Shown: piece by piece, positions 9,629 through 24,892 of the stretch
Numbering within the stretch: position 1 is the stretch's first letter
Layout: the number at the start of each line of letters is the position of its first letter
Origin: an uncultured Gammaproteobacteria bacterium
GTDB taxonomy: Bacteria > Pseudomonadota > Gammaproteobacteria > UBA9214
Assembly (NCBI GenBank): GCA_963763115.1
Contig: CAVXNM010000016.1
Coordinates: forward strand, 1,592-65,591
Length of the DNA: 64,000 nucleotides
Reading direction: 5' to 3'
Notes under the pieces: model-generated
Told to the model about the DNA's origin: nothing
The model's input: only the letters and a program-made list of their open reading frames with translations
Database searches by the model: none
Position numbers and translations under genes: made by a program

Positions 9629-11465
9629 TCAGCGTCCATGACGCTGTTCCCAAAGGGCAAGGCTGAGCAGCGGCCACAGACCCCATCCGAAATCACGCCG
9701 CCCCTCCAGATGTTGCTGATACAAGGCGCGCAGTGCTCTCCTGTCAACGGCAACACCTGCCAGGTGGTCCCTCGTCAGCAATACGTCTTCCATGAACGGC
9801 CGAAGCGATGTGCGCAGCCATTTGCCCATGGGCGGTTCAAACCCTCTTTTGTCAGACGTCTGAAATTTCAAACGTCTAGCCAGACTTTTGCGGAGAGGAA
9901 TCTTCCCTGTTCCCTGTGCCGGACTAAAGCAATCGCGCCAATCAACCTGGACAGCAACATCGATGACTTCTCTGTCGAGCAGCGGGACACGCACTTCCAG
10001 ACCATTATACATACTGGCCCGATCCACCTTGAGCAGAACACCCGTGAGATGACTGAGAAACTCGTTCCAGCGTAGCCATTGGGCGGCACAGTCCGCGTCG
10101 CTGCTGTCAAAGTCATAAGCATGGTAGTCAACGGGCCACGTGGACATTTGCGGGAATACTTTTTTCAGCCACGGTTCCGGGAGGTGGCTGTGCATGGCAC
10201 GTTGCCAGGCCCCTACCGAGTCATAGCGATGACTATCTGTTTGCGGCCAGCGCGCCAAACGGCGCACGAGCTGCCTCGCACGTCGCCCCTGCCGGGAATG
10301 GCGGAAATCCTCCACACCCGCCATCAAGGTTCCAAAGCGTCGCGCATATCCCCAGAATAATTCGTCACCCCCATCACCGGAAAGCATAACGGTAAACTGC
10401 TGCCGCGCAAGCCGCGACACCAGCAGGGTGGGAAAAATAGAAAAATCGCCAAACGGTTCGCCGCAGGCACTGACGACATCGTCCAGCATGTCCACCGCAT
10501 CATCGGGGACCACGTGCACTACCGTCTGTTCTATGCCCAGCTCGCGTGCATAACGAATCGCATCCTGGGACTCATCTGTTCTGTCACCACCCGTACCGAT
10601 GGTGAACGCCCGCATTTCAGTTTCACAGGCTTCCCGCATCTTGGCACAGACCAGTGGTGAATCAATGCCTCCGGACAGGAACGCCCCTATCGGCACATCA
10701 CTCACCAGTTGCCGTTTGACCGCGCCGCTGATTGCTGAATCCACGGCATCCAGGGCCTCCCGCCCGGTAAGGGTCGGCACCTGATAGCGTGGGAAATCAT
10801 AGTAATGGCCCCTGGAGATGCGCCCTGTGCGGATCAACCTCAAGCCAGCTGCCTGGTTCCAGCATAAAAGTATCTTCAAGAATACCAAAAGGCGCGGGAA
10901 CGCTAGCCAGATGCAGATATAAACTGGCTGCCGCAGGTGAAAAACCAAGCCCGTCGCTCCATGGGTGGGCGAGTAACTGGTCATATTGCGACCCGAATAC
11001 CAGACCTGCTGGATGCTTCAGGTAATAAAGCGGTTTGATGCCGGCATGGTCCCTGGCCAGTAGCAGCGTCTTCTCTCGAACATCATAGAAGGCCAGCGCG
11101 AACATGCCGTTAAACCTGTTCAGCGCATCGCGTCCCCATTCTGCCAAGGCATAAAGGACAACTTCCGAGTCACTGCGGGAACGAAACCTGACTCCCCGCC
11201 GCTCCAGTTGGCAGCGCAGCCCGGCAAAATTGTAGACTTCGCCATTGAACACCAGGACGTATCGACCATCCGCGGAAACCATCGGCTGATGGCCCGCGGC
11301 AGACAGGTCAAGAATGGCCAGGCGGCGGAATACGAGATGGCAGTACTCGTCCTGCCAGGCGCCGGCGTCATCCGGACCGCGGCGGACCATGAGTTCGCTG
11401 ATAACCTCCCAGTTCGCAGCACTCGGCCCGCCGTTAAAGCGCAACTCTCCCGCTATTCCACACAT
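9629..11465 (-). pseudogene. asnB: Asparagine synthase (glutamine-hydrolysing), AsnB-type amidotransferase; frameshift near 10830 as sequenced
   Basis: MCGIAG N-terminus, RRGPD, FNGEVYN, RDHAGIKPLY in ORF 10797-11465; LSGGIDS, SGDGGDELF, KVDRASM, EVRVPLLD in ORF 9629-10984. Confidence 0.88.
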
Positions 11466-11492
11466 AACATCGATCTGATACTCAAACGCGGT

Positions 11493-13395
11493 TCACACAG
11501 ACTTGTTTGCCACAGGCGAAATATCGGTCGAAGAATACTGAAATAAAGTAAAAATGTCATAGAGCATACCGTGCTGTCGTCGGCGTTGTTCTGCGGAGGT
11601 GTTGCTCGACAGCAGGTTCTCCAGTTTGCTGCGGTCAATAAGCGCCCATAGTGGTGATTCGGTTTGATCGAAACAGAGGCTGCGAAACTGCTCCAGTCCG
11701 GTTTCGAGCAGATCGGATCGCTCCTCGCCTTTGGTGTTCGTGAATACCGGTCTGTATTGCCGCCCGTTACCATTCTGTGCAACTTCCGCGCTGCGCGTAT
11801 TGGCAGAGACCGATTGGCGCGATCCACGAAGTGTTCGAAAATGAGCCCGGATACGGTTTGCGGATGCCACGGCATTTCAAACGGAACATCACCAAGTTCA
11901 GGGACGAGACGGGCAAGCAGTTCCTTGGGAATGCGCTCACAGTAACGTTGATAGGCAGGCACACCAAAGGCCGCTCTGGCGTAGGGTCGGGTGGCGAGCG
12001 GCGCAAATACATCGATGAATGCCGATATCTGGCGAAAATTACTGCCCCCCCACCGGCGCAGGCGGTCGCGCAGGTAAAAAACCGTGTTGAGATCTTTTGT
12101 CGCAAATCCCATCCCGGTCGCCTCCCGCGCGAAATCGCGAATGTAGTCGGCTGCCACGTGGACGACATCGGGATGCAGCAGATCTGCCCGCGGTTTGACG
12201 ACCGTGTTGATCATGTTTGTAGTGTAGTCATTCGGCGCTGTGCTCAAAGAGGTAATAGAAGCGCCGGTCTTTCAGGTAGAACGGACGGGCAATTTCTCCG
12301 CCAATACCGTACAGGTGTATTCTCAGACGGTCTATTTGCTGCGGGTGTCCGATCGCATTGGCGATGTTGGCAAGCGTCACCATGCCGTCCGTCTGCCCGA
12401 GGAGGCGCCGGCTTGCCGTCGCCCACTGAGCCAGTACCGCGGCGTTGTCCAGTTCCTGTTCATTCGGAGCACGATGAGGAATAACTCCCGCGCGGTGTGG
12501 CAGATTCAACCTTTTTGCAACGGCAGTACCAATGGTGACGTCCGGACTGGAAAGCGGCCCGGACGAAAAGTATTCCGCGGAAATACCATTGCGCACCAGG
12601 AGCGCCGCCAGCAGCCGTGAATCACGCCCGGCAGTGATCGGACATTCGATAACGCTGTCATAAGCCGACAGGCCACGACAGATCTGCGACAAGTGCCTGC
12701 GCGAGATCATCGGCTTCGCGGCCAGCAAAATTCTGCTGCGGCAGCCGTGAAAGCTCCTCCAGAGAAAAGTACTTTTTGCGTTGCGGTTCGCCGCAGCCTG
12801 TCTTCCAGCGCCAGATCTCCCCTGCCGGAAACACGCGGATCCCATCTCGCAGCGTCCGGTCACCTGCCGTCCAGCCCAGCCCCAGACAGTACATTGCGCC
12901 GACGGTATCAAGGCTCCGTCTGGAACGGATGCGACTGATCAATTCGACGCTGTTACTCAAAATTACGCCCTGCTGCGTCTGGCAATAGAAGAGCTGGAAC
13001 ATGCCCAGGGCGTCAACCATAATTTCAATGCTGGCCGGGTCATGGCGCACACGCGCAACACAAAACTGGCCTTCAAGCACCTGTGGTAACGACTGCCAGT
13101 GTTGTGCGAGCTTCTCAGCATCAAACGCCTGGAATTCTGCCGTTGCAACCACAGGAACGCCATCATACAAGACGGTTTCTTCGGGTGTCTGATAGACGTA
13201 ACGACGCAGCTTTGCTGGTTTCTTGCCGGCATGCAGTCCAGCGACAAATGCCGTGTCCCCAGCTGGGTACGAGCTTTCGATGTCAAGGTAAGGATATATG
13301 GCCCGCATTTCCCTCAGCAGAGCCGGAATGCGGTCTCTCATCGCTGAATCGAGCTCCCAGCCAATTACAAACAGATTCATACTTCTCGGCTCCAC
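11493..13395 (-). pseudogene. Asparagine-synthetase-related protein, about 3 frameshifts as sequenced
   Basis: Consecutive ORFs 12658-13395 (Ntn-like LEGQFCVA, DALGMFQLFY), 12228-12911 (PITAGRDSR, GIGGEIAR), 11453-12247 and 11493-11870 form one reading path. Confidence 0.65.
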
Positions 13396-13763
13396 GAAAA
13401 GGCGAGCCCCATGTTACACGAGGATTTTGTGCAAAAATACCGGCGCTAACTGGTCCCCTCCCTTCGCCACACTGTCTCGGCAGCAGTCCATTCGTGCTCG
13501 ATAACAAGACGCCTTGCAGACTGCCATCCTTCTGATCTTATGCGACGCAAAGACACGGCGTGCTGTTTGGGCTCTACGGTACGGAATGACTGCGTGATTG
13601 CCCCGGTCAGATTTGGGCGCGACAGACAGGAAACCGCTGCGACCCGGCTATATCGTTGCGGTCAAGAATGTTCTCGGAAAAACGCTGTTACTAAGCCCGA
13701 ATAAGTTGGCATACGGGTATCTGCAACACGGGGTAACTTGTCCGGCCACGCGGACTTCATGGG

Positions 13764-15122
13764 CTACATGTTGCGAGGATGGGGTTCGAGTGCATCGAAC
13801 CAGACATTCGCCATCTTCGCATAGCCCGTAGTATTGGGATGTAACTGATCGCTCAGATCGTCCGGATAGATCAGGGCGCCGTGCTGGTCGACAACAATGA
13901 TATCATCGCCATTCGCGATGCGGGTGGTGGCCATGGACTGGACAGCGTTGTTCAAGGTGGTCACATCGGGATTAAGCGGATTCTGGTCAATGATAAGCGC
14001 CAATATCACGGTTACATGATTGCCGCCGGCACTCTGTTCCCACTGATCAATCTCGTTCAGAATGTCGGCTATATCGACTTCGGTAGTCTGACTGAGATTG
14101 TTCGTTCCCGCGTGTAGCAGAACGATATCAGCCGGGTTTGCATTCAGCCAGGCACGGACGCCATCGGTTGGAAAACCCGTCTGGCCATATGCGATCTCAG
14201 TAGCATTCCACCCGCCATGACCTTCATGGTTAACATCGAAATCGGGCAGGGCGCTCGAACCGCTGCTCAGGCTGCCGACAAAATCGAAAGTGAAGCCAGA
14301 CCCTGTTAGTAAATCATACAGCGGTCTGCGGTATCCGAACCTTTCGTCGAGCGGTAGCACGGTGGGACCAATCACCCCGTCCGTAATGGAATCACCCAAC
14401 GGCATAATGGCCTCATCCACAACAACCTCTTGTGTCGCGCTCGCGCTTCCCCCGTCCGGATCAGTCACCTGGTAGGTAAAAGTATCAAGCCCTCTGGCGC
14501 CACTGGTGGCAGGCTGATACGAGAATGCACCCGTTGTGGCATTGGTGATGGTCACTGTGCCGTTCTTGGCGGTCGTAACAGGGCCCAGCCCTCCTGAGCC
14601 GTCTGCATTCAGGCTGTACATCAGCAAATTGGGACTTTCCACATCGGTTGCGGTCAAGGTCCCTGTTAACAGCTGCGCCTGCCGCGTGTTCGAACAACCT
14701 CCAGTGGCCTGGGGTGGGTCATTGATCGAATTGATAACCACTGCCACGTCTGCGACGTTGGAATCTGCGAGGCCATCATTCGCTTTAAAGCTAAAGCTGT
14801 CTGTGCCATTGGCGTTCGGATCGGGCGTATACCGGTAAGCGCCGGTGGTCGGATCAGTAATACTGGCTGTCCCCTTGCCCGCATTAGTAACGATACTGTA
14901 CGTCAATGGATCGCCGTCGGTGTCCGTCGCGTCAAGTTTACCGGTGGCGGAGGTATCCTCATTGGTCGACAAGGTACCCGCGGTCGCCACCGGTGCAGAC
15001 TCGACAGTGGTGCCACCGCCGTCACTGCCACCACCCCCACCGCCGCAAGCGGCCAACGCACTCGCGACCAGCAGCACGGCAAAAAAATGAACATGCGAGG
15101 TATTATTCCTGGTAGGGCTCAT
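13764..15122 (-). CDS. Lipoprotein with two cadherin-like/Big_9 repeats and a C-terminal SGNH/GDSL hydrolase
   Basis: Lipobox ALAAC + Gly run; TNEDT..DTDGDPLTY..YTP..NGTDSFSFKANDG repeats; GDSIT, EGHGG, AGTNN, DQLHP. Confidence 0.85.
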   Translation of the reverse strand: MSPTRNNTSHVHFFAVLLVASALAACGGGGGGSDGGGTTVESAPVATAGTLSTNEDTSATGKLDATDTDGDPLTYSIVTNAGKGTASITDPTTGAYRYTPDPNANGTDSFSFKANDGLADSNVADVAVVINSINDPPQATGGCSNTRQAQLLTGTLTATDVESPNLLMYSLNADGSGGLGPVTTAKNGTVTITNATTGAFSYQPATSGARGLDTFTYQVTDPDGGSASATQEVVVDEAIMPLGDSITDGVIGPTVLPLDERFGYRRPLYDLLTGSGFTFDFVGSLSSGSSALPDFDVNHEGHGGWNATEIAYGQTGFPTDGVRAWLNANPADIVLLHAGTNNLSQTTEVDIADILNEIDQWEQSAGGNHVTVILALIIDQNPLNPDVTTLNNAVQSMATTRIANGDDIIVVDQHGALIYPDDLSDQLHPNTTGYAKMANVWFDALEPHPRNM

Positions 15123-19503: not shown

Positions 19504-20277
19504 CTACCAGACTTTCCAGGGGGCCTCGCCGCTCTGCCACAGCTCCTCGAGCACATGTTTATCGCGCAGCGTATCCATGGGCTGCCAGAATCCGCTGTGC
19601 CGGTAAGCGGCCAATTCACCGCTGACCGCGAGCGTCTCCATAGGCTGCTTCTCCCAGCTGACGGAATCGCCTTCAATGTAGTCCAGGACACCTGGTTCGA
19701 GCACAAAATAACCGCTGTTGACCCAGGCACCGTCGCCATCAGGCTTTTCCTTGAATGACGACACCCGGTTCTCGTTTCGCCCAAGCTTGAAGGCGCCGAA
19801 ACGGCCTGGTGGTTGTGCCGCCGTGAGTGTGGCCAATACACCTTGAGCTTTGTGAAACGCTATGAGATTTGCAATATTCACGTTGGAAACACCGTCGCCA
19901 TAGGTGAAACAGAAGGTTTCATCTCTGATAAACTCACCTACCCGCTTCAGCCTGCCCCCCGTCATCGTTGCGTCCCCGGTTTCCACGAGCGTGACCCGCC
20001 AGGGGTCCACGCAGCTGTTGTGAATCTCCACCTCGTTATTCTTCAGGTCGAACGTCACGTCGGCGCACTGGAGGTGATAATCGGCGAAGTACTGCTTGAC
20101 CACGTGTGACTTATAGCCACAGCAGATAATGAAGTCGTTGATCCCGTAAGCTGAATAGGTCTTCATGATATGCCAGAGAATCGGTTTTCCGCCTATCTCC
20201 ACCATGGGCTTGGGTTTGACGCTACTTTCCTCACTGATTCGCGTCCCGAACCCTCCCGCCAGAATGACTGCCTTCAC
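19504..20277 (-). CDS. rfbF: Glucose-1-phosphate cytidylyltransferase
   Basis: [49 protein letters not shown]. Confidence 0.95.
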
Positions 20278-20718
20278 CGGATTGCTCCTTATGGTCTTTT
20301 CCAGGCATGGCCGCCTGGACAGACACGTTTAATACCATTGGCTCCAGAATATTAGGATTCGATTATATTACATGCGCAAGTCGTGATTTTACGTCCACGC
20401 TCGAGAACACCCGCCAGCAACTGTCGGAACGGCTCTACGGTTTAAGTGCCAACAGCGAAGCTGTACTGTGACATTTTATCTTGCTTCAACCCAATGAGTG
20501 GGGTAATCTCCACGCGATACTGTTAAATCGTACCATAGCGTCATGATATTGATAAGCTTTTCTGCGTAACGTTGATACACAAAGAATCTTAGTCATTTAC
20601 TCATTTAAGGAAATCAGCTTTATCGGCCGCTATTGGCTGAGTGCCAGGCGTATTCGGTCTATTCGACTGAAATACGAATTAAATTCAAAGGCTTAACGAT
20701 CCAAACGAGGTTGCAAAT

Positions 20719-20883
20719 ATGAGTCGACTAGTTAGCGTCAGGGTCTTCCTGCTCATGGCAATCGCCACCCTGATAGCAGGCTGCGGTGGTAGTGGTGGCG
20801 GCGATAACACCCCCAGCACCCCACCTGCCACCGGCAGCAGCAACTGGGACACCATGGTGTGGGACCAGGACAATTGGTCATAA
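20719..20883 (+). CDS. 54-aa lipoprotein with C-terminal Trp-Asp motif
   Basis: Below ORF-track cutoff; RBS GAGG, MSRLVSVRVFLLMAIATLIAGC|GGSGGGDNTPSTPPATGSSNWDTMVWDQDNWS*. Confidence 0.8.
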   Translation: MSRLVSVRVFLLMAIATLIAGCGGSGGGDNTPSTPPATGSSNWDTMVWDQDNWS

Positions 20884-20945
20884 CCTGACCGACAATATTC
20901 GAGTTATCTATCACTGAACAGATTGAATACAGAGAGGTACCCGTC

Positions 20946-21776
20946 TTGAAGAAATCACTGTTTTCCACGAGCATTGCCGTCCTGTTGGCCTCCACTGGGC
21001 ACTGCAACATTGGCGGCAACTGTAACCATCCCCAATACTTTCACGTCCGGTACGCCGGCGGTCGCGGCGCAGGTCAACGATAATTTCACCGCCGTAGCAG
21101 ACGCGGTAAACGCCAATGACAGCGCAATCACAGCGCTTCAGGCAGGCAGTGGCACTAGCTGCGCCGGTCAGGATGCGACCGATATCATGGTCCAGATTGG
21201 ATCCGTGTGTATCGACAAGTACGAGTCCAGCGTGTGGGACAGTGCCGCGGGCGGCGGTACTCAGTATGATGGCGTCGGATCGCCTTACCCCTGTGTCGCC
21301 GACGGCAGTGACTGTGGCAAACCTGCCCCATCTATGCCCGCAGTCAAGCCGGCGTGACTCCCTCGGCAAATATTGCCTGGTCCCAGGCGGTGCAGGCCTG
21401 CGCCAACGTCGGCAAACGGCTGCCCACAGCTGCCGAGTGGCAATTGGCTGCCTCGGGAACCCCGTCTGGCGTTAATGCTGATCCGGCCGCCGGTTGCAAC
21501 ACTGGCTCCGGAGCAGTTTCCACGACCGGCCTTGCAGGCACACGTGCGAGTCCAGCGGCGGTGCAGCCGATATGGTCGGTAACGTGTTGGAATGGGCAGC
21601 GGATCTCGTGGTCAATTACGGTGGCACCAGTAATACCAGTACCGATAACATGAAGGTCCTCTCTTTCGGTGATGACTACCTCAATTCAACTGCTCATGCC
21701 GAGTACAAAAGGTGTCTATGTGATCAACAACCCAATCACACCGGTAGGGTCGATTGGCTTCCGCTGCGTGCGTTAA
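20946..21776 (+). pseudogene. Secreted FGE-sulfatase/C-type-lectin-fold protein with tail-fibre-like N-terminus; about 4 frameshifts as sequenced
   Basis: RBS GAGAGG, TTG start MKKSLFSTSIAVLLA; IPNTFTSGTPAVAAQVNDNF; CIDKYE, WSQAVQAC..GKRLPTAAEW, DMVGNVLEW, terminal SIGFRCVR*. Confidence 0.75.
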
Positions 21777-21880: not shown

Positions 21881-23197
21881 TCAGGACGCTTGAATCTTAC
21901 CGGGCCGGGAAAAGTATTCGTTCTGCTCCAGCCGCAAGCGGTCGCACAGGCGCCCAGACGGCAATTCCACATCGTTGTAGCTAATCACTTCGTCCTTTGA
22001 AAGGTTGCGCTTCAGTCGGCAGCCTTCGGCAAGCCCCATGGGAAGCAGCTTCTCCCGGGCGACAATATCTGAATTTTCAGCCTGCCCATAGGTCATGTAA
22101 CATCCCAGACCATCCAGTACCTCAGATTCCTTCAGGTCTTTCTTGGCGGTTGTGATCACGTCGACCCGCGGCCGGTCGATGGGCGTTATGGCAGCATCTC
22201 CAAACAGGACAGCCCTCGCCACAGTGTTGGGAACCTCAAAATGACACAAATGGTAAGGGGTATAGAAGCAATAAAGCGGGCCCTCACCCAGTTTATAGAG
22301 GTTTAGATAGTGTTGCTGCGCGGGATGATCGTGGGTACCGAGCACGAAAACGCCTGCCCCTGGTTCCGCGCCCACCACGTAATCTACAATCCCGGACCCC
22401 TCGGTCACAGCATCAAGAGGATAGCGCTTGACGGCGTCGGCAAGCGGCGTGCCCGACGGGACTACAGGGCCAAACATGCCCCGCTTCGCCACCTTCATCC
22501 CGGTCGCATTCGCTACTATGGCCTGCTCGAATGATATCTTTGTCCCATCGGCAAAAGACGTAACCATATGCGGCTTCTGTTTCCATGTGCGGGCAAATGC
22601 CTGCTGCGTTGTCGGGTTCCTGTAAGGATCATGCAGGCCCTTTATGTTGCCGCACATCACCGGCCTTACGCCAATGCCCTTGACAAACCGGTACAGGTTC
22701 ATGATTACGCCCGGCTGGTCTCCATCAGCATTGGTGATGACAACGCCCCGCTTGTCTGCCTTCACCTTCAGTATGGGGCCAACCGTCCCGTCCAGTTCGG
22801 CATTCATCATGATGACATGTTTGCGGTGCTCGATGGCGCTGAGTACCACCTGGGCTCCGTACTCTACAGTCCCCGTCACTTCAATGATGGCGTCAATACC
22901 GGTGGCTTCGCATAGCAGGAACGGGTCTTCTGCAACCGCTGCGCGGCGCCGCGAAATTGCGTCTTCCAGCTGGCCGACGGTAGCAACCTCACAGATATCG
23001 TCGACACCGGCCTCCAGATAAGCGCGCCTGGCGCCATCAATATGCCGATTTGCGATGGCAACCAGATCCATTCCCGCAAAGGCAGAACTGAACTGGAGCG
23101 CTATACCCCGCCCCATGAACCCGGCTCCGACCATCGCCACCCTCACCGGATCGCCGGCTTCGTGGCGCTTGCGGAGAGCAGCATCGACTATTACCAC
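21881..23197 (-). CDS. NAD(P)-dependent oxidoreductase (homoserine-dehydrogenase-like) with C-terminal SAF domain
   Basis: GAGFMG, DGDQPG, FADGTK, YTPYHLCHFE, LDGLGCY, LPMGLAEG. Confidence 0.85.
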   Translation of the reverse strand: MVIVDAALRKRHEAGDPVRVAMVGAGFMGRGIALQFSSAFAGMDLVAIANRHIDGARRAYLEAGVDDICEVATVGQLEDAISRRRAAVAEDPFLLCEATGIDAIIEVTGTVEYGAQVVLSAIEHRKHVIMMNAELDGTVGPILKVKADKRGVVITNADGDQPGVIMNLYRFVKGIGVRPVMCGNIKGLHDPYRNPTTQQAFARTWKQKPHMVTSFADGTKISFEQAIVANATGMKVAKRGMFGPVVPSGTPLADAVKRYPLDAVTEGSGIVDYVVGAEPGAGVFVLGTHDHPAQQHYLNLYKLGEGPLYCFYTPYHLCHFEVPNTVARAVLFGDAAITPIDRPRVDVITTAKKDLKESEVLDGLGCYMTYGQAENSDIVAREKLLPMGLAEGCRLKRNLSKDEVISYNDVELPSGRLCDRLRLEQNEYFSRPGKIQAS

Positions 23198-23229: not shown

Positions 23230-23760
23230 TTATGCGCCGAAATCAGGCCAGCCTGCGTCCTTCTCGGAGATAACCTCGACCGGACGCGACCATACGATAC
23301 CAAACGCAGGGTCGTTCCAACGCAAGCCCCGCTCCGCCCCCGGCGTATAGGCTTCCGATACCAGGTAAGTTACTTCAGTGTTGTCCTCCAGGGTGATAAA
23401 CCCGTGAGCAAAACCCGCCGGGACATACAGCATATTATAGTTGTCGGCCGTCAGTTCCACAGCGGTCCACCGTTTAAAGGTCAATGAGTCCGGCCGCAGA
23501 TCCACAATCACATCGTATATCCCGCCCCTGCTGCATCGCACCAGCTTGGTTTCCTCGTAAGGCGCGGCCTGGTAGTGCATTCCCCTCAGGGTACCTGCCC
23601 TGGTATTGAAGGAGGTATTCGCCTGTACGACTGTGGATACCAGGTTGTGCTGCTCGAACTCCTTCTGGCACCAGACTCTGGCAAAGAAACCACGGCTGTC
23701 TTCAAGCTTGTCCAGTTCAATGCGGTAGGCACCCTGAAGTTCCGTCTGGTGGAACTTCAC
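23230..23760 (-). CDS. rfbC: NDP-4-keto-6-deoxyhexose 3,5-epimerase (RmlC/RfbC family)
   Basis: DSRGFFAR, GTLRGMHYQ, VPAGFAHGF, RWNDP; GTG start at 23760. Confidence 0.9.
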   Translation of the reverse strand: MKFHQTELQGAYRIELDKLEDSRGFFARVWCQKEFEQHNLVSTVVQANTSFNTRAGTLRGMHYQAAPYEETKLVRCSRGGIYDVIVDLRPDSLTFKRWTAVELTADNYNMLYVPAGFAHGFITLEDNTEVTYLVSEAYTPGAERGLRWNDPAFGIVWSRPVEVISEKDAGWPDFGA

Positions 23761-23761
23761 C

Positions 23762-24804
23762 CTACTGCCACTCCAGATGGCTGTTGAGGCGGCCCTGTTC
23801 ACGGTGTTGCGCAATGACCTTCAGCCGGATCAGCTGGGAATTGCGGAAATCCCCGTCGTTGAACCGCATGAATTCCAAACGTTCTGCCAGATCTTCAATA
23901 GCCGTTTTCAGGGTCATCTGCGGCTGGTGATCCGCTGCGAGTTTCTCGTACAGGCTGAAATCAACCTGATATGAACGCTTATCCGCCGGCGCATCCGTAT
24001 TGATCGATACCGACACACCGGGAATGATCTCCGCGACCGCCTCTGCAAGATCGCGTACCTGGTAGTTCCAGCGTTGCTTCCTGAGTTCAGCGCGAGGAAA
24101 CGCCCACCGTTCGCGCTATCGCGATGGATTGCCCAGTCCATCGCCAGAGCCATGTCCCTGACATGAATCAGGGGCCGCCACGGCGTGCCGTCACTGAGGA
24201 CGGTTATCTGTTTGGATGCAATCGCGCCCGCAACAAAATCGTTTAAAACAAGGTCCAGTCGCAACCGGTCGCTGGCTCCACAGGCGGTCGCAAATCGGAG
24301 ACAGGTCACTACGAAACCGTCATCAGCCAGTTTATTCAGTTCTTCCTCCATGCCGATCTTCGACTTCGCGTAGGCAGTCAGCGGATTCAGCGGCGCCTGT
24401 TCGTCACGCGCCTCACCTTCGGCGAACCCATAGACGCTGCAGCTGGATGCAAACACAAAGCGGCTCACACCTGCTGCTTTAGCTTGTCTCGCCAGTTCGA
24501 TACTCGCCTGAAAGTTAATATCGTGCGTAACTTCCTTGAATCTATCGCCCATCGGGTCATTGGAAATTGCCGCCAGGTGCACAACAGCATCGACGCCTGC
24601 AAAAAGGCCCTGCGGCAGCTTTCTCAGGTCGGCGAAATGTTGAACGTCCAGCCGGTTTTCGGGAAAGACAGTGACACCTGTCAGGCAATGGGCAAAATAG
24701 CCGGTGTCAATGCCAATCAGTACCGCCCCCGGAGTCGAACGCCGCAGCCGTTCCAGCAGGACTGGTCCAACGTAGCCCATATTCCCCGTAATCAAAATCT
24801 TCAT
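23762..24804 (-). pseudogene. NAD-dependent epimerase/dehydratase; frameshift near 24065 as sequenced
   Basis: MKILITGNMGYVG, SSCSVYG, YAKSK, RLRLDLVLN; C-terminus continues in ORF 23762-24016 (DKRSYQVDF). Confidence 0.85.
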
Positions 24805-24892
24805 AGCCGCAGCCCCCAATGTAGTACCCGAATACAGTGACAAAGCAACCTTCCAGTATACTGAATCTTGTTAGATTCGTCGCATTTCACTC

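Follow-up and report, generated by a model that had tools for sequence, protein, structure and literature searches.

The analyzed window spans 64,000 nucleotides of a contig from an uncultured gammaproteobacterium and contains a cassette of two plus-strand genes inserted against the direction of a glycan operon, at the positions claimed in a preliminary description of this DNA. Both neighboring genes lie on the minus strand, a nucleotidyl transferase gene at 19504-20277 and a DRL oxidoreductase gene at 21881-23197, and the surrounding cluster, which encodes glycosyltransferases, an ABC-2 exporter, and sugar-nucleotide enzymes, runs opposite to the cassette. No promoter or terminator consensus was found at the cassette, and each of the cassette motifs is present once in the 4.0-Mb genome.

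Gene 1 (20719..20883, plus strand) is preceded by a ribosome-binding-like GAGGT at 20707-20711 and encodes a 54-aa lipoprotein, a predicted anchor whose architecture is kept among relatives. As initially described, it is made up of a lipobox, a linker, and an end motif: a signal is followed by the lipobox I-A-G-C22 (20773..20784, plus strand) with Gly at +2, a linker of Gly, Pro, Thr, and Ser, and then NWDTMVWDQDNWS directly before the stop codon, giving a W-x4-W-x4-W end. This C-terminal triple-Trp tag, W43-D-x3-W48-D-x3-W53-S (20845..20880, plus strand), is a predicted fiber-docking loop, based on a tag alignment and on a phage tail hub motif. Against the genome's own background, the chance of an open reading frame (ORF) with a W-x4-W-x4-W end is 0.0003 per 300 nt.

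Gene 2 (20946..21776, plus strand) encodes a secreted fiber protein of approximately 275 aa once four breaks are discounted, runs from a TTG at 20946 to a TAA at 21776, and is likewise preceded by GAGGT (20934-20938). In the window it appears as four pieces over three frames, in which the signal peptide, IPNTFTSGTPAVAAQVNDNF, GNVLEW, and IGFRC are all present. The signal peptide (20946..21015, plus strand) is of Sec type without a lipobox and is broken at about 20997 in the window, its assignment resting on the sequence, on the homolog P0001, and on contigs from sequencing runs. A 37-aa N-terminal module follows (21022..21132, plus strand), delimited by profile and modeled by AlphaFold2 as an extended arm plus a helix, and is the predicted trimer base that would bind the tag; a short helix sits between it and the tip. 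The tip (21148..21773, plus strand) has an FGE-sulfatase/C-type-lectin (CLec) fold, identified by Pfam and run contigs, and is split into three reading-frame pieces. Two gene 2 pieces match the Pfam family FGE-sulfatase (PF03781), one at 31.1 bits, over the cut-off, and the other at 19.6 bits, under it. P0002, an intact gene 2 homolog, gave FGE-fold structure matches, over short stretches only, to FGE, SUMF2, and EgtB structures. The non-lipoprotein signal peptide and the FGE/CLec domain attributed to this gene at the outset are therefore both seen.

The preliminary description proposed repair of the frameshifts from reads, and contigs of public short-read runs show offsetting indels at all four breaks. 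A -1 indel at 20996/7 is found in contigs of all four public short-read DNA runs, a -5 indel at 21321-21327 and a +1 indel at 21542 are each found in contigs of two runs, and a +2 indel at 21694 is found in one run, in a single contig of depth 3.1. By arithmetic, these sum to a net -3, leaving 275 codons and a stop. P0001, which comes from another assembly and is 99% identical, is continuous across breaks 1 to 3, though not across break 4, and two of the four indels recur in RNA-library contigs. The four frameshifts are likely to be assembly errors, with the fourth held less firmly. RNA-library contigs (three runs, depth 2-3, with DNA carry-over uncontrolled) cover 20604-20799, 20899-21081, 21359-21515, and 21410-21559. 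More apparent frameshifts occur elsewhere in the window, at 9632-13413 and 23230-24870 (minus strand), where asparagine-synthase-like genes lie in overlapping pieces and an epimerase gene runs into the next gene; this is consistent with an indel-prone assembly. In contigs of run X5, the tip stretch at 21237-21376 is swapped for other letters between conserved flanks, as in alleles or paralogs whose loop has diverged.

Relatives of gene 2 have in common only the signal peptide and the 37-aa module, then a helix. AlphaFold2 modeled the module as an extended arm and one helix (residues 17-44 of 46) with a pLDDT of 95, and its profile matched 9,443 clusters (50% identity, cellular and viral) at an E value of ≤0.001. 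A crude signal-peptide test was passed by 120 of 130 complete cellular module proteins, whose C-terminal parts fall into 47 clusters. Pfam matches were obtained for 13 of the 122 proteins scanned among the 150 best representatives: 4 to FGE, 4 to the S74 chaperone, 2 to Lcl_C, and 1 each to a phage tail repeat, RCC1, and a Toprim chimera. The FGE/CLec tip is present in gene 2 as described but is only one among many exchangeable tips. Module and tag are without a convincing match to any Pfam, NCBIfam, or PHROG model. When profiles of the module, the tag, and the hubs were searched against PDB sequences, nothing reached an E value of <0.01, and a structure search of the 46-aa module against 48,161 chains returned nothing above a Z score of 5.0, with the fiber-type entries 9J1L, 5EFV, and 8EAP within noise. 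An ESM Atlas search gave no usable match, and a word-index search with the 54-aa gene 1 protein retrieved only itself.

Linkage of the tag and the module was examined in both directions. In the forward direction, 58 of 79 module genome loci have an ORF with a W-x4-W-x4-W end at most 300 nt upstream on the same strand; the tag lies further upstream in 1 of the rest, within 3.5 kb downstream in 8, and is not found in 12. For the reverse direction, a search by tag DNA pattern alone gave 120 loci, from which 12 chance matches in tiny frames and 13 loci near a contig end were dropped. A module gene comes next after the tag in 84 of the resulting 95 metagenome tag ORFs, all with at least 250 nt downstream, and 5 of the 11 ORFs without an adjoining module gene have only 300 nt of sequence beyond. 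Among 401 genomes of the class drawn evenly, of which 400 were scored, the module occurs in 32, the tag pattern in 20, and both in 16; with the source genome left out, the tag pattern occurs in 15 of 31 module genomes versus 4 of 368 others. These tag counts are a floor, since the pattern omits TAG stops and longer tails, and the contingency overstates independence because genomes are related. At the best locus of each of 29 other class genomes, the tag lies 89-171 nt upstream in 21, as a one-residue-longer variant in 2, and downstream in 1, with no tag within 1.5 kb in 5. Hosts of module loci include many Gammaproteobacteria, Zeta-, Alpha-, and Betaproteobacteria, Desulfobacterota-type bacteria, Nitrospirota, and Planctomycetota, and the N-terminal piece is matched in none of 60 relatives. 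The co-occurrence of lipoprotein and module families that had been put forward as a check is thus found from either side, and, at the level of sequence, these results show that tag and module are passed on together, as two genes or one fused gene. Tag lipoproteins at three loci (L215, L235, and L239) are followed by 1.4-3 kb of unrelated genes without a module gene; the partner may be elsewhere in the genome.

An alignment of 118 tags shows no variation at the three Trp positions (W22, W27, and W32). The non-redundant tag ORFs number 147; a crude lipobox test is passed by 110, of which 103 are short lipoproteins, and truncated ORFs, near-misses, and secreted Ig-like proteins are among those that fail it. 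By the Lol sorting rule, Gly rather than Asp at +2 of gene 1 points to the outer membrane, and the same position is Gly in 86 of the 110 relatives and Asp in 3. Tag and module are also found on one chain: in P0054, P0055, P0058, and P0059, a signal and the tag share the protein with an IPTL-CTERM-like membrane segment and with modules, two or three per chain. Three modules stand in tandem in P0053, P0054, P0055, and P0154, which fits a trimer, as do the tips of 6 of the 122 scanned relatives, which are of the S74 chaperone or Lcl_C type. An AlphaFold2 model of the fused P0054 gave the modules a pLDDT of 81-94 and the tag one below 50 and offered no docking support, in a weak test with a 43-row alignment of which 4 rows carried the tag. 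The fused forms resemble midcut-by-XrtH (NCBIfam NF033207) and IPTL-CTERM (TIGR04174) proteins in their order of signal, IPTL-like segment, and second hydrophobic segment, but score 20-26 bits, under the 45-bit cut-off. The source genome itself has no NF033207 match, and true midcut-by-XrtH members at two loci (L348 and L349) carry neither tag nor module. A tandem array of five midcut-by-XrtH genes over the family cut-off was seen in another genome (G055:C23:129320-132725).

Several other tag arrangements were seen. At eight mostly Lysobacterales-type loci (L039, L057, L066, L072, L076, L079, L081, and L089), the tag ends a secreted Ig-like protein encoded downstream of the fiber gene, and the Ig-like tag proteins of this set have an IF-x2-GFE motif after the signal peptide. 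Many copies of the Trp motif occur at L157, L398/L399, and L181, where a viral ORF of 827 aa contains four, a single contig has six matches, and a long VNWDQ repeat is present; such multi-copy proteins are possibly multi-fiber scaffolds.

The module had been likened to phage tail-fiber attachment ends, and by sequence this likeness holds, as the module forms the N terminus of phage proteins whose genes come directly behind those of tail hubs. In 80 of 80 viral loci it begins 2-3 residues after Met, without a signal peptide, and in none of them is a terminal tag found upstream. In 62 of the 80, the module gene directly follows, at a gap of 8-15 nt, a hub-like gene (a 540-aa virion gene), and 60 of these 62 hubs have an internal triple-aromatic loop, W-G-x3-W-G-x2/3-W, 50-60 aa from the C terminus. 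One viral module gene (L100) matches the tail fiber family phrog_4492; in annotated phages, tblastn gave no module match and a profile search matched one gene. Two viral module genes directly after hubs (L424 and L429) have a signal-peptide-like N terminus. Such an N terminus was also seen in 2 of 80 phage fiber-type genes, p64 of Mx8 (L509:21887-22960) and one relative, and Mx8 p64, L424, and L429 are possible intermediates between virion and exported forms. Homology of Mx8-type fiber N termini to the module was not supported: despite a by-eye likeness, their hhalign score of 8.2 did not reach the 12.9 of the highest-scoring of 50 shuffled controls.

In a separate viral scan, 84 of 120 loci had the exact W-D-x3-W-D-x3-W at a distance of 45-60 aa from the stop. 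Among 80 motif loci with long flanks, 52 of 78 motif ORFs are at least 450 aa long, typically lying between an adaptor-sized gene and ejection-type genes, and one motif ORF matches annotated tubular tail B/stabilization proteins. The exact motif is present in tubular tail B of phiGT1 (gp15) and in p52 of Mx8. These belong with the P22 gp10-like hubs (tubular tail B, "phage stabilization protein") of phiGT1, Mx8, and many uncultured podophages, which carry it about 50 aa before the C terminus; in one subgroup, the next gene starts with the module. By comparison, the loop in the cassette would have been cut out, moved to a C terminus, and given a lipobox. No solved structure showing the binding role of this particular hub loop was found. 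A module gene is detectable in only 3 of the 120 viral loci with the tag-like motif, from which it follows that the hub loop serves other fiber bases too. At three viral loci (L498, L502, and L505), a gene ending in WDQSLWDQANWS stands directly before the module gene, which is the cellular layout without export signals; at L505, an SU10-type adaptor gene is followed by a tandem pair of module genes, and a pectate-lyase-like tip is present.

A structural precedent for the proposed joint is provided by phage Pa223, in which the three Trp residues of the Fiber Attachment Loop of hub gp59 act as a plug of pseudo-threefold symmetry that sits in the base of a single trimeric fiber, gp60 (bioRxiv 10.1101/2025.06.11.659172). 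Aromatic fiber-attachment loops are described for the Pa193 and P7-1 baseplates as well (PMC11042391, PMC13338283). Pa223 resembles the cassette in placing three evenly spaced Trp on one anchoring chain, its loop reading W-D-x5-W-D-x5-W-G, but differs in belonging to a virion rather than a cell, in a Trp spacing of 7 versus 5, and in a loop that is internal (residues 354-387 of 513). Pa223 gp59 matched the profile of module-preceding hubs weakly (18.7 bits) and outside the loop, and the module profile did not match Pa223 gp60. By analogy, we regard Pa223 as a precedent for the joint and not as a proven homolog.

Together, these data suggest, with a probability of about 70%, that the cassette is a two-part tether, in which the terminal three Trp of the lipoprotein would plug into the base of a secreted, probably trimeric fiber and thereby hold an exchangeable tip out from the envelope. 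Counting against this reading are the module loci with no tag nearby, the tags with no adjoining module gene, the rarity of module genes at the viral motif loci, the differences from Pa223, and, for surface exposure, the lack of a recurrent transporter gene. The mechanism starts from a lipoprotein that joins a lipobox, a flexible linker, and the tag, and from a fiber that joins a signal peptide, the module, and a tip. Tag and module travel as a unit, in two genes or one fused, and the same module opens phage proteins that follow tail hubs, whose loop about 50 aa before the C terminus has the same Trp spacing. By analogy with the Pa223 structure, one tag would bind one trimer with one Trp per chain, a 1:3 joint in which the tag loop hangs on the lipid by the flexible linker. 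The lipid would then anchor the complex in the outer membrane, and the surface would be reached through a general export machine, most probably type II secretion; this guess follows from the presence of GspL in the source genome and from a survey of 79 loci, in which the cassette has no recurrent transporter gene as a neighbor. A broader proposal, to which we give even odds, is that the fiber-attachment loop of podophage hubs has been turned into a portable 12-residue docking tag, carried on lipids, exosortase-type anchors, or giant repeat proteins, that displays thousands of tail-fiber-based trimers.

The same linkage of tag and module would be expected if the tag bound the module to assist its folding or export, either by seeding trimer formation in the periplasm or by passing the trimer on to the secretion machine, with the fiber then released or active in the periplasm. 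Some tag carriers lack a lipobox (about 26 complete ORFs fail the crude test, many as near-misses), those of Lysobacterales type combine an ordinary signal peptide with an Ig-like domain, and there is no dedicated transporter, all of which would agree with such a role. Several membrane-retention devices nevertheless bear the tag, namely, a lipid, the IPTL-CTERM-like segment, and very large Ig/cadherin-repeat lipoproteins, a variety that suits a permanent mount. In phages, moreover, the loop belongs to the hub structure itself, and we consider the folding or export role unlikely.

The remaining explanations turn on the kinship with phages and on the tip fold. The close match of both halves to virion parts, together with the patchy distribution of the cassette (the N-terminal piece in 0 of 60 relatives; the module in 32 of 400 class genomes), could reflect an antiphage decoy, in which the cell's tag captures phage fiber subunits or its module occupies hub loops, leaving virions without working fibers. 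Phage tails assemble in the cytoplasm, however, whereas both halves are exported; the two halves would also saturate each other, the tips are diverse binding folds, and the FGE type sits in glycan clusters, making this very improbable. There is a similarly small chance that gene 2 is a target of a diversity-generating retroelement (DGR), with the lipoprotein as a bystander or accessory. The DGR targets Mtd and TvpA have the FGE-type CLec fold, gene 2 shares this tip fold and the terminal GFRC, one contig has a substitution cluster at 21689-21715, and the genome has 17 reverse-transcriptase matches. Against this, gene 2 has neither a template repeat nor a linked reverse transcriptase: no second copy of its 3' end was found in the genome (blastn word size 7; genome 88% complete), none of the 17 matches (PF00078) lies on contig C16, the intact ones are frames of 445-477 aa, and most relatives have non-FGE tips. 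The DGR association raised in the preliminary description was therefore not borne out. Finally, the four frameshifts and the existence of phage homologs could mark a decaying prophage remnant or pseudogene without a cellular role, but the frame is restored in other runs, the cellular copies, unlike the 80 from phages, have acquired signal peptides and lipoboxes, and no phage structural family was found among 39 long window ORFs scanned (15 of them without a Pfam match at 1e-8). That explanation is largely refuted already and retains next to no probability.

The 17 reverse-transcriptase matches lie on contigs C89, C90, C25, C30, C52, C61, C33, and C85 of the source genome and cluster on C89 and C90. 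Several are identical in score and 445-477 aa long, which we take to be the size range of group II intron reverse transcriptases, and they look like a group II intron expansion.

Regarding what the tether would hold, among loci of 7 kb or longer, 5 of 8 FGE-tipped cassettes adjoin homologs of the glycan genes of the window, versus 0 of 53 with other tips, a count that places L065 among the FGE-tipped loci (4 of 7 versus 1 of 54 before this reassignment) and in which the glycan-linked loci are kin, two of the five being near-identical. This adjacency suggests binding to the cell's own polysaccharide. In what is the weakest step of the mechanism, the FGE/lectin-fold tip would bind the polysaccharide of the surrounding gene cluster and act as a matrix or cell-cell cross-linker. 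The same cluster contains a lipoprotein-like gene (13764-15122, minus strand) whose product combines Big_9/cadherin repeats with a GDSL domain, homologs of which adjoin the cassette at four loci (L013, L014, L048, and L065); at L036, the homolog itself ends in the Trp tag.

Among cellular systems, the mosaic adhesive trimer (MAT) fibers of Bdellovibrio are described as having a signal peptide, a constant N-terminal domain, swapped tips, S74 chaperones, a likeness to phage fibers, and a surface location (PMC10769870). The first five of these features are shared with the cassette fiber, and a surface location is predicted for it. That account gives the MAT N-terminal domain as β-rich and of about 130 aa and leaves the surface partner open, whereas the base of the cassette fiber is a 37-aa arm-plus-helix with a candidate anchor gene adjacent, a contrast drawn from the MAT description. 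The cassette would thus offer a concrete answer to how phage-like fibers without a membrane domain stay on the cell, a question left open for MAT fibers (PMC10769870).

A further likeness is to surface structures that pair an anchor or stalk with a variable end: type V pili combine a lipoprotein anchor with a variable tip, and trimeric autotransporter adhesins combine a trimeric stalk with a head. The cassette differs from both in that family scans matched no pilin fold or translocator domain and in that its anchor is a separate 12-residue tag. No curated family was found for the cellular pair, nor any published account of it in open-license PMC and bioRxiv texts; judged from sequence, the pair is real and widespread, appears to be undescribed, and would form an anchor-plus-fiber cassette built from podophage tail parts. 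The tether reading would give a role to a module present in some 9,400 clusters and to tiny lipoproteins, both without a curated family, and it predicts where the fiber binds in a large class of podophage hubs. If true, it would also reveal a widespread surface-display system that has no name, a peptide-tag coupling pair of natural origin with 1:3 stoichiometry, and an undescribed way of displaying binding proteins.
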